Positions 26,699-28,100 of a stretch of DNA of 64,000 nt are shown here, piece by piece. Under the pieces are notes generated by a model. The model searched no databases. It was not told the origin of the DNA and saw nothing but the letters and a program-made list of their open reading frames with translations. The position numbers and the translations under genes were made by a program. The stretch comes from Escherichia coli (GTDB taxonomy: Bacteria > Pseudomonadota > Gammaproteobacteria > Enterobacterales > Enterobacteriaceae). Every line of letters starts with the position of its first letter. The first letter of the stretch is position 1. The stretch lies in NCBI RefSeq assembly GCF_003334355.1, contig NZ_QOWP01000003.1, one strand, 5' to 3'.

Positions 26699-26800
26699 TG
26701 CCTGATGCGCTACGCTTATCAGGCCTACATCGTGCATTGAAATTGAATGGATTTGCAATGAACTGTAGGCCGGATAAGGCGTTTACGCCGCATCCGGCAA
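26699..26800. repeat. BIME: two REP palindromic units downstream of epmB
   Basis: 26763-26800 is the reverse complement of the canonical REP GCCGGATGCGGCGTAAACGCCTTATCCGGCCTAC; 26699-26729 is a GCCTGATGCG...CTTATCAGGCCTAC-type unit. Confidence 0.8.
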
Positions 26801-27061
26801 GAGCAACAAACGCAAGTACCGCAACCTGTCATTAAACTGAGAAATTTAATCTTTGCCCGTTGCATAACCTTTAATTATTCATATGCATTGCTGTTGTTAC
26901 TTTTTATATAGCTAACACCAATAATTAACCTTTCTTTTCTGTTTATATAGAGTGAGCACGGCTATTTATGTTATTTTAACAACTATTACTACCAAGCCCA
27001 TTTATCTGGCTTATAAATTAAAATTAATTATTTAATTGAGAAATGGTTAGGGAGAACCTAC

Positions 27062-27931
27062 ATGGCCATAAGCATCAAGGGTGTTAATACCGGTGTTATT
27101 CGCAAGAGTAATAATTTCATTGCACTGGCGCTGAAAATTAAAGAACCTCGCAATAAAGAATCGTTGTTCTTTATGTCTGTCATGGAACTGCGCGACCTGC
27201 TGATTGCGCTGGAAAGTCGTCTGCATCAAAAGCATAAACTGGATGCTGCTGCACGCCTTCAGTATGAGCAAGCTCGCGATAAAGTCATTAAGAAAATGGC
27301 AGAAAACATCCCAGAAATTCTGGTTGATGAGCTTAAAAATGCCGATATTAATCGTCGGGTTAACACGCTGGAACTTACCGATAATCAAGGCGAAAATCTT
27401 ACCTTCGTATTAACGCTACATGACGGTAGCAAATGTGAGTTAGTCGTCAATGAGTTGCAGATTGAAATGCTGGCGCGAGCAATCATTCATGCAATTAATA
27501 ATGCGGAAATGCGTGAACTGGCATTACGTATTACCTCACTGTTAGATTTCCTGCCGTTATATGACGTTGACTGCCAAGAAAATGGCAATCTGGAATATGA
27601 CACCTATTCCCAACCGGAATGGAAACATAACCTGTTCGACCATTATCTGGCGGTGCTTTACCGCTTTAAAGATGAAAGTGGCAAAGAACAATTTAGCGGC
27701 GCAGTGGTGAAAACGCGTGAAGCAACGCCGGGTAAAGAAATAGAGGCGATCACTCGCCGAATGCTTGATTTCAGCCCACGACTGAAAAAACTCGCGGGTG
27801 TGCCATGTCAGGTCTATGTTCGCACCGTAGCGGCGAATAACGCCCAACCGCTAACCCAGGATCAATGCTTACGCGCGCTGCATCACTTACGTGTTCAATC
27901 CACCAGCAAAACTGCACCACAGGCGAAATAA
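27062..27931 (+). CDS. yjeJ: Uncharacterised protein YjeJ, 289 aa
   Basis: ORF track MAISIKGVNTGVIRKSNNFIALALKIKEPRNKESLFF...; no recognisable motif; matches the K-12 y-gene by size and position. Confidence 0.8.
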   Translation: MAISIKGVNTGVIRKSNNFIALALKIKEPRNKESLFFMSVMELRDLLIALESRLHQKHKLDAAARLQYEQARDKVIKKMAENIPEILVDELKNADINRRVNTLELTDNQGENLTFVLTLHDGSKCELVVNELQIEMLARAIIHAINNAEMRELALRITSLLDFLPLYDVDCQENGNLEYDTYSQPEWKHNLFDHYLAVLYRFKDESGKEQFSGAVVKTREATPGKEIEAITRRMLDFSPRLKKLAGVPCQVYVRTVAANNAQPLTQDQCLRALHHLRVQSTSKTAPQAK

Positions 27932-28000
27932 TCTCATCTTTGCTAATGCGAGGCTGGAGCCATCCAGCCTGAAATGACTGATAACGTGATCGTTGGTCAT

Positions 28001-28100
28001 GCCGGATGCGGCGTAAACGCCTTATCCGGCCTACAAATTCTCAAGCATTCAATCAGTTGCAATGCCTGCTGTAGGCCTGATAAGCGAAGCGCATCAGGCA
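28001..28100. repeat. BIME: two REP units downstream of yjeJ
   Basis: 28001-28034 matches REP consensus GCCGGATGCGGCGTAAACGCCTTATCCGGCCTAC exactly; 28069-28100 is a second inverted unit (TGTAGGCCTGATAAGCG...CATCAGGC). Confidence 0.8.

Follow-up and report, generated by a model that had tools for sequence, protein, structure and literature searches.

We analysed a stretch of 64,000 nucleotides of the Escherichia coli chromosome (RefSeq assembly GCF_003334355.1, contig NZ_QOWP01000003.1; hereafter, the window), focusing on yjeJ, one of the remaining genes of E. coli K-12 without an assigned function. The comparison of its divergent relatives revealed that the typical place of the YjeJ family is very probably the end of a microcin-like peptide-export operon, and that the yjeJ of E. 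coli survives on its own at the chromosomal site of this island. It is this family context for which yjeJ merits attention. The repetitive extragenic palindromic (REP) sequences and the AT-rich DNA surrounding it are real but ordinary, and the account of its origin that a previous sequence-only reading had built on them, i.e., the horizontal acquisition of a silenced gene, proved largely wrong.

The gene contexts of divergent YjeJ relatives were examined at 12 loci, each looked up individually. Eight of the sampled loci are chromosomal and fall outside the E. coli-type clade; in all of them yjeJ closes one conserved, co-directional block (Table 1), embedding, in this order, a chaperone-usher fimbrial operon, one to three genes for peptides with a double-glycine leader, an HlyD-type membrane fusion protein (MFP), a C39-peptidase ATP-binding cassette (ABC) exporter (peptidase-containing ABC transporter, PCAT) and YjeJ. 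The stop codon of the PCAT gene and the start codon of yjeJ are separated by 9–30 nt, and most of these gaps contain a purine-rich, Shine-Dalgarno-like stretch. The island ABC protein matches the models of bacteriocin-export peptidase ABC proteins with E-values from 1e-104 to 1e-144, the matches remaining below the cut-offs curated for these models, and the adaptor protein matches HlyD. No conserved small membrane open reading frame (ORF) was found across seven islands; this, in turn, leaves YjeJ as their only conserved non-export gene. The fimbrial operon is present in 8/8 islands, and its constancy hints at a surface- or contact-linked role of the island.

Six of the eight islands abut yjeI-groL, and in Klebsiella, Entomohabitans and a Scandinavium-like genome the gene to the right of the island is yjeI. 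Since yjeI adjoins both the E. coli yjeJ and these islands, the chromosomal site is the same. In the Scandinavium-like genome (locus L012) the order is epmB, a regulator, the fimbrial genes, a peptide gene, MFP, PCAT, a first yjeJ paralogue, a LuxR-type gene, a second yjeJ paralogue and yjeI; the first paralogue is linked to the exporter, and the second is of the E. coli type, its product being 43% identical to E. coli YjeJ. No E. coli genome harbors the MFP-PCAT island with at least 80% of the query covered in one place; the E. coli matches to this query correspond only to MchF/CvaB-type genes located elsewhere, with about 67% DNA identity over 20–25% of the query. Co-directional adjacency to PCAT and MFP is thus a property of the YjeJ family (8/8 loci), not of the E. 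coli yjeJ, which stands alone. Stand-alone homologues, about 24% identical to both the K. pneumoniae and the E. coli YjeJ, were also found on plasmids of 18–57 kb from several Serratia species; the copy on a 47-kb plasmid of Serratia marcescens (L008, 8001-8858) lies beside a transposase of the Tn3 family, with no exporter in its surroundings.

In K. pneumoniae strain 176 the island is rearranged or degraded (L020, 5622-18860; the record bears the label of a plasmid but has a length of 5.37 Mb). A frameshifted adaptor gene is followed by the exporter, yjeJ and a broken yjeI, and then by another fimbrial operon, whose usher gene is fragmented, a peptide gene and a groL that is truncated.

The island peptides, annotated only as "hypothetical protein", are about 100–122 aa long (about 85–107 aa once mature), with glycine-rich hydrophobic cores preceded by 15-residue double-glycine leaders, such as MKELTVFEMEEISGG. 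The leader, MKELTVFEME.ISGG, is highly conserved across the islands, and the cores fall into two types. None of the peptides matched NCBIfam, the one compared with Pfam gave no significant match, and neither the peptide motifs nor the name "YjeJ" was found in the supplements of PMC9746304. Two islands also code for a second, unrelated double-glycine-leader peptide that is not glycine-rich (L010, 3356-3598; L011, 9077-9364), ending in ...KMFGA.AGRDLAK.A...IV.IVNSIFGW. In Entomohabitans (L017), three peptide genes are arranged in tandem (3789-4049, 4473-4808 and 5156-5362), one of full length and two shortened, and one of the shortened copies has a weak precomputed match to Bacteriocin_IIc; by analogy, this arrangement resembles the arrays of toxin-gene fragments at other bacteriocin loci.

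The YjeJ protein of the window matches a single Pfam family, PF15922 ("YjeJ-like"; E = 1.3e-174), its residues 1–283 aligning with positions 1–283 of the 283-position model. No match was retrieved from NCBIfam or PADLOC, and nothing significant from the PDB sequences or PHROGs (best E-values of 0.08 and 0.009, respectively). PF15922 is a family of unknown function; hence, the statement of the sequence-only reading that the protein has no recognisable motif was loosely right, and the lack of an assigned function was borne out. The search of 1.84 billion representative proteins retrieved only 97 YjeJ clusters, and all the family members bearing an organism name belong to Enterobacterales. A profile search with the family alignment returned almost only Citrobacter sequences, with no gain of distant members.

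A structure prediction and a fold search of the 289-aa product, which had been proposed as a check, were carried out. The AlphaFold2 model, obtained from a 25-sequence alignment (predicted local distance difference test score, pLDDT, 93.4; predicted template modelling score, pTM, 0.88), is globular and displays three beta-beta-beta(-beta)-alpha repeats. The three-repeat PUR/Whirly-like fold is thus predicted with high confidence; the protein is also predicted to be soluble and cytoplasmic. The likeness of the modelled fold to Pur-alpha/PUR-repeat (Whirly-like) proteins and to DUF3090 is moderate (root-mean-square deviation of 4–5 Å), with no detectable sequence similarity. YjeJ does not belong to a PurA-type profile either, as Pfam gave only PF15922 and no PDB sequence matched below E = 0.08. 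Foldseek also retrieved structural look-alikes of about 280 aa from Pseudomonas (E = 1e-14 to 1e-17). The family proteins span 276–289 aa; their maximum 19-residue hydropathy is 0.8–1.8, always in windows including charged residues, and no membrane-like segment was found in any of the members checked. The exporter-linked proteins are acidic (isoelectric point, pI, 5.2–6.1), and three of the four E. coli-type proteins are basic (8.3–9.2; 8.3 in E. coli), the Atlantibacter one having a pI of 7.0.

With its chromosomal site fixed, yjeJ is hypervariable among close relatives. Across the seven islands compared, PCAT (77%) and MFP (68%) have the highest mean pairwise identity, followed by the mature peptide (42%) and YjeJ (30%). 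Between E. coli and Salmonella, YjeJ is 59% identical and its neighbours are 88–99% identical; overall, the protein evolves 5–60 times faster than its neighbours. The divergence of YjeJ tracks that of the exporter (Mantel r = 0.82, p = 0.001; Spearman 0.81 with MFP and PCAT), not that of the peptide (r = 0.27, p = 0.09). In a neighbour-joining tree, rooted at the midpoint and devoid of support values, the E. coli-type orphans form one clade among the exporter-linked lineages.

Two pairs of close relatives were also compared individually. In two Atlantibacter lineages (L006, 8001-8825, and L022, 9001-9855) the flanking proteins share 87–99% identity and the YjeJ proteins only 34%; in two K. pneumoniae strains (L004, 8001-8864, and L020, 10001-10861) the identity is 50% for YjeJ, 89% for PCAT and 100% for GroES.

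Within E. coli, yjeJ is an old, expressed, vertically inherited core gene and not a recent silent import. It was found in 5426/5426 complete genomes, in 5397 of them with at least 80% coverage. The order epmB-yjeJ-yjeI-groL is also shared by Citrobacter, two Atlantibacter lineages and Salmonella (STM4332); because the site is the same in all these genera, any acquisition of yjeJ must predate their split. These data do not support the view that yjeJ is a typical horizontally acquired gene. As for expression, genomic SELEX (systematic evolution of ligands by exponential enrichment) assigned to yjeJ a constitutive RpoD (sigma-70) promoter, TTAACC-17-TAGAGT (PMC3946193), which we located in the window (−35 box TTAACC, 26925-26930; −10 box TAGAGT, 26948-26953). 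The same table flags other spacers as "HNS", but not that of yjeJ (PMC3946193), and the protein was quantified in K-12 grown in LB medium (PMC9508795); these data lend no support to silencing by the nucleoid protein H-NS. Our simple promoter scan missed the published promoter, its match counts not exceeding the shuffled expectation. The gene is also listed among those regulated by Nac (bioRxiv 10.1101/2020.03.30.016519). All five E. coli alleles examined are intact, and the ratio of nonsynonymous to synonymous substitution rates (dN/dS) is about 0.08–0.3, falling at about 0.1 at the larger within-species distances; yjeJ is under purifying short-term selection within the species. In the literature search, yjeJ appeared only in gene lists, in promoter tables or as a neutral linked marker, and no paper tying yjeJ or PF15922 to microcins was found.

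The gene lies in the segment blc-sugE-ecnAB-efp-epmB-yjeJ-yjeI-groLS-yjeH and was present, as a 289-aa coding sequence, where the sequence-only reading had placed it, with a GGGAG Shine-Dalgarno sequence, as read from the DNA, immediately 5' of its ATG. The compositional features described in that reading were confirmed as well. The AT-rich DNA upstream (26830-27060) has 28.1% GC, and the coding sequence (45.2% GC, 44.5% at third codon positions, GC3) lies below epmB (52.7%) and groL (53.3%). The other 39 long ORFs of the window average 52.1% GC and 56.8% GC3, which makes yjeJ the second lowest out of 40 (z = -2.2 for GC and -2.1 for GC3). The GC content of yjeJ is atypically low; its local codon adaptation is average (0.71 vs. 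0.72). The 5' half of yjeJ (27062-27500) has 41.9% GC and the 3' half (27501-27931) 48.5%, prolonging the AT gradient of the promoter region. The sole long ORF of the window with a lower GC content (39362-40900; 41.9% GC, 39.0% GC3) is probably cadC, judging by its place beside cadBA-like ORFs; the cadC-cadB spacer is flagged as an H-NS site in the genomic SELEX table (PMC3946193). No mobility or tRNA genes adjoin yjeJ. The hairpin just 3' of its stop codon lacks a T-run and is thus not a classical intrinsic terminator; it is probably a 3'-end or terminator structure between the convergent yjeJ and yjeI. It is retained with or without the downstream REP elements in 5/5 E. coli strains, whose differences fall only in the loop.

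Table 1. Coordinates of the features of the yjeJ region in the window and of the export islands in the loci sampled.
Feature	Sequence	Position	Strand	Description
yjeJ coding sequence	Window	27062-27931	+	289 aa; yjeJ in the RefSeq E. coli annotation; Pfam PF15922
AT-rich regulatory region and 5' leader of yjeJ	Window	26808-27061	+	30% GC; holds the published sigma-70 promoter
Hairpin AGGCTGGA-GCCA-TCCAGCCT	Window	27951-27970	+	Just 3' of the yjeJ stop; 8-bp stem
yjeI	Window	28134-28487	-	DUF4156 lipoprotein gene; conserved right-hand neighbour of yjeJ
Upstream BIME (bacterial interspersed mosaic element)	Window	26700-26798		Z-type REP 26700-26728 (+), 36-bp linker, Y-type REP 26765-26798 (-)
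Insertion with downstream BIME	Window	27971-28123		153 bp; Y-type REP 28001-28034 (+), Z-type REP 28071-28099 (-)
Island	L004	3692-8864		K. pneumoniae
Island	L009	4188-8837		Kosakonia
Island	L010	3356-8849		K. grimontii
Island	L011	4568-10567		K. quasipneumoniae
Island	L012	1148-12606		Scandinavium-like genome
Island	L013	1-9849		Budvicia
Island	L017	1-9849		Entomohabitans
Island	L018	1-9867		Metagenome contig

The canonical REP pairs that had been reported on both sides of yjeJ were confirmed at 26700-26798 and 28001-28099. Scanning the window with up to three mismatches allowed, the 34-nt Y-type REP was found in exactly two copies, both 34/34, and the 29-nt Z-type REP in two copies (29/29 and 28/29); shuffled sequences gave 0 matches for either type. 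The pairs are inversely oriented, with a 34-nt spacing, and both are intergenic; the two BIMEs are mutual inverted copies, whose arms, of 56 and 44 nt, agree at 86% and 95%, respectively. The REP-containing query has a median of at least 39 matches per E. coli genome, and the BIME-containing query is covered at 80% or more in about 3834 of the 5426 genomes, which fits a common presence/absence polymorphism. The alignment of the present window with K-12, O157:H7, strain SCU-122 and isolate 362 revealed both insertions in K-12 and in the window, only the downstream one in O157:H7, and neither in SCU-122 or isolate 362; yjeJ, its nearly invariant AT-rich leader and the hairpin following its stop are kept in all five strains. 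The BIMEs are, therefore, ordinary strain-variable insertions unrelated to the origin of yjeJ. The idea that the REP brackets delimit a yjeJ unit is not supported, since BIME-less strains keep the gene; a mobile cassette bounded by the inverted BIMEs was likewise considered and rejected, strains lacking one or both of them retaining yjeJ.

As regards the insertions themselves, on either side of the upstream one (about 160 bp) lies an imperfect direct repeat of 28 bp that duplicates the epmB stop region (26659-26686 and 26819-26847) and looks like the footprint of the arrival of the element. The downstream one is bounded by the direct repeat CCAGCCT (27964-27970 and 28117-28123), the left of the two copies forming the 3' arm of the hairpin; these repeats could represent either a target duplication or a microhomology-mediated deletion. 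Neither BIME linker contains an exact copy of the consensus for integration host factor (IHF), WATCAANNNNTTR; hence, the assignment to the IHF-binding subclass BIME-1/RIB was not confirmed. The Rfam scan returned nothing beyond two naRNA4 matches at 26768-26857 (+) and 27996-28031 (-), scoring 43.6 and 40.4 bits, respectively, below the gathering score of 59.5. The latter match and the 5' end of the former fall on Y-type REPs, and the naRNA4 family itself derives from REPs, so that these matches merely re-detect REP sequence. Compared with the REP/BIME elements of E. coli in general, nothing is unusual: the types are the canonical Y and Z, paired head-to-head between gene ends, multicopy and strain-variable.

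On the whole, we can depict the following scenario for the origin and the role of the E. coli gene. The lineage of Escherichia, Salmonella, Citrobacter and Atlantibacter would have kept only one gene of the island, yjeJ. In the cytoplasm, YjeJ would act as a protective or handling partner, shielding the cell from the island peptides or their precursors, and in E. coli the gene would persist as an orphan self-protection gene, possibly repurposed since then. That the orphan is functional follows from the dN/dS values, the intact alleles, its presence in all the complete genomes, the constitutive promoter and the detectable protein. Taken as a whole, this reading, in which the E. coli yjeJ is an island orphan coding for a cytoplasmic self-protection or peptide-handling factor, joins a context that was observed to a function that we infer, and we consider its chances of being correct somewhat short of even; an immunity-like mechanism, considered on its own, remains tentative and is slightly less probable still. 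The points counted for self-protection are the lack of a small membrane immunity gene in the islands, the long-lived orphans under purifying selection, the Serratia plasmid copies and the hypervariable locus. In its most specific form, the proposal would make YjeJ a new class of soluble cytoplasmic PUR-fold self-protection factors directed against a widespread enterobacterial family of fimbria-linked, PCAT-exported glycine-zipper peptides; the yjeJ of E. coli and Salmonella would be an immunity gene orphaned long ago, still protecting against the peptides of Klebsiella, Kosakonia and related Enterobacterales of the gut and of plants; so detailed a version is doubtful.

Several observations weigh against self-protection. 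The immunity proteins of class II microcins are small (at most 216 aa), membrane-spanning and encoded beside the microcin gene (PMC12219008); YjeJ departs from them in size and in the absence of a transmembrane segment (276–289 aa, no hydrophobic segment, globular model). Moreover, in the islands MFP and PCAT lie between it and the peptide genes, and the E. coli locus has no such peptide gene. A divergence following the exporter rather than the peptide is a poor fit to a strictly cognate toxin-binding partner. An AlphaFold model of YjeJ fused to a precursor through a (GGGGS)x6 linker, with a paired alignment, gave no confident docking (peptide pLDDT <50) and was treated as uninformative on binding. 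The island peptides could be not toxins but structural or biofilm proteins tied to the fimbriae, and protection from them would then be superfluous. The orphan YjeJ may also have changed function, given the mostly basic pI of the E. coli-type proteins and the acidic one of those linked to the exporter. Lastly, the tree is only midpoint-rooted and carries no support values, so that the island may instead have captured a resident yjeJ, and the sample consists of eight island loci and about seven orphan loci.

The other possible roles of YjeJ were weighed on the same data. The constant position of yjeJ directly after the PCAT gene, at 9–30 nt, the correlation of its divergence with that of MFP and PCAT and not with that of the peptide core, and a leader strongly conserved in front of cores of two types would all suit a cytoplasmic accessory of the exporter, which might bind leaders, hold aggregation-prone precursors or regulate PCAT, the orphan of E. 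coli being reused otherwise. Nevertheless, copies devoid of an exporter are kept in Escherichia, Salmonella, Citrobacter, Atlantibacter and on the Serratia plasmids, with no E. coli genome harboring the island; a mean identity of 30% (50% within K. pneumoniae) is odd for a part of a machine whose partners stand at 77–89%; and the fused model of YjeJ and precursor showed no docking. Furthermore, no cytoplasmic chaperone is known to be required for type I microcin secretion. All in all, an accessory role appears rather unlikely. If the confidently predicted three-repeat fold is taken as a guide, YjeJ might be a PUR/Whirly-like binder of single-stranded nucleic acids, acting as a transcriptional or post-transcriptional regulator of the island and on other targets in E. 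coli; the mostly basic E. coli-type proteins (three out of four) and the LuxR-type gene between the two paralogues of L012 would be in keeping with this. The exporter-linked members, though, are acidic, no sequence match links the protein to PurA or to any nucleic-acid-binding family, and hypervariability within genera is atypical of regulators, so that we regard such a binder as improbable, more so than an exporter accessory.

Two further explanations concern the history of the E. coli gene rather than its role. That yjeJ is a decaying relic, functionless in present-day E. coli, might be suggested by the rapid evolution of its protein, by the shortened form of many Salmonella YjeJ entries in the AlphaFold database and by the use of a yjeJ deletion as a neutral linked marker (PMC10679819). 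The 289-codon ORF is, however, intact in 5/5 alleles, with a dN/dS of about 0.1 at the larger distances, at least 80% of its length is covered in 5397 of the 5426 genomes, its promoter region shows conservation and the protein has been detected; a functionless relic is, thus, very unlikely. The view built on the sequence-only reading, according to which yjeJ is a recent, H-NS-silenced import in a segment delimited by REP/BIME clusters, has on its side the low GC content of the coding (z = -2.2) and upstream (28%) DNA and the inverted BIMEs on both flanks. It is contradicted by the presence of the gene in all 5426 genomes, which leaves no patchiness, by the synteny with Salmonella, Citrobacter and Atlantibacter, by BIMEs that were gained independently and are missing from some of the strains keeping yjeJ, by a constitutive promoter with no H-NS flag together with a detected protein, and by the lack of an adjoining mobility or tRNA gene; of all the explanations considered, we deem this the least probable, and scarcely credible. 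The description of yjeJ as a single gene and not a system, given in the same reading, holds for E. coli, but not for other Enterobacterales, where the family belongs to the peptide-export island.

The family context provides the first testable hypothesis for yjeJ. In the island of Klebsiella and its relatives, fimbriae and glycine-zipper peptides are combined with a type I exporter, and the canonical immunity gene for a membrane protein is lacking; peptides of this kind could thus be handled or resisted there in another way. Should YjeJ prove protective, competition with Klebsiella in the gut would be shaped by a gene of the E. coli and Salmonella core; otherwise, the locus remains a clear case of hypervariability in a gene whose chromosomal site is fixed.

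Orphan immunity genes persisting without their toxin are known in the colicin, contact-dependent inhibition (CDI) and type VI secretion (T6SS) systems. By analogy, yjeJ resembles them in standing alone, in being hypervariable between close relatives at a fixed site and in occurring also on plasmids; it differs from them in that YjeJ does not co-vary with the peptide and in that a uniform allele is fixed throughout E. coli, with no variation from strain to strain. With the clusters of class II microcins, such as that of microcin V (cvaC, cvi, cvaA and cvaB), the islands share the double-glycine precursors, the HlyD-type adaptor and the C39-peptidase ABC exporter, and the microcin V system and the islands have four functional slots each. 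In the islands, unlike in the microcin clusters, nothing fills the slot for a small immunity protein of the membrane, and a soluble protein of about 285 aa, YjeJ, follows the exporter gene; a fimbrial operon is always present, and E. coli itself has the yjeJ gene alone. Their peptides, unlike the known microcins, are long (about 85–107 aa once mature) and match no microcin model of NCBIfam or Pfam. A further term of comparison is the Cdz system of Caulobacter, a bacteriocin system of the glycine-zipper type that depends on contact (PMC5380434). Immunity to Cdz is reportedly due to a membrane protein, CdzI, and nothing similar to YjeJ is said to have been described there. Cdz, like the islands, exports glycine-zipper-type proteins, sometimes paired, through a PCAT and an adaptor, and the constant fimbriae of the islands hint at a surface or contact action.

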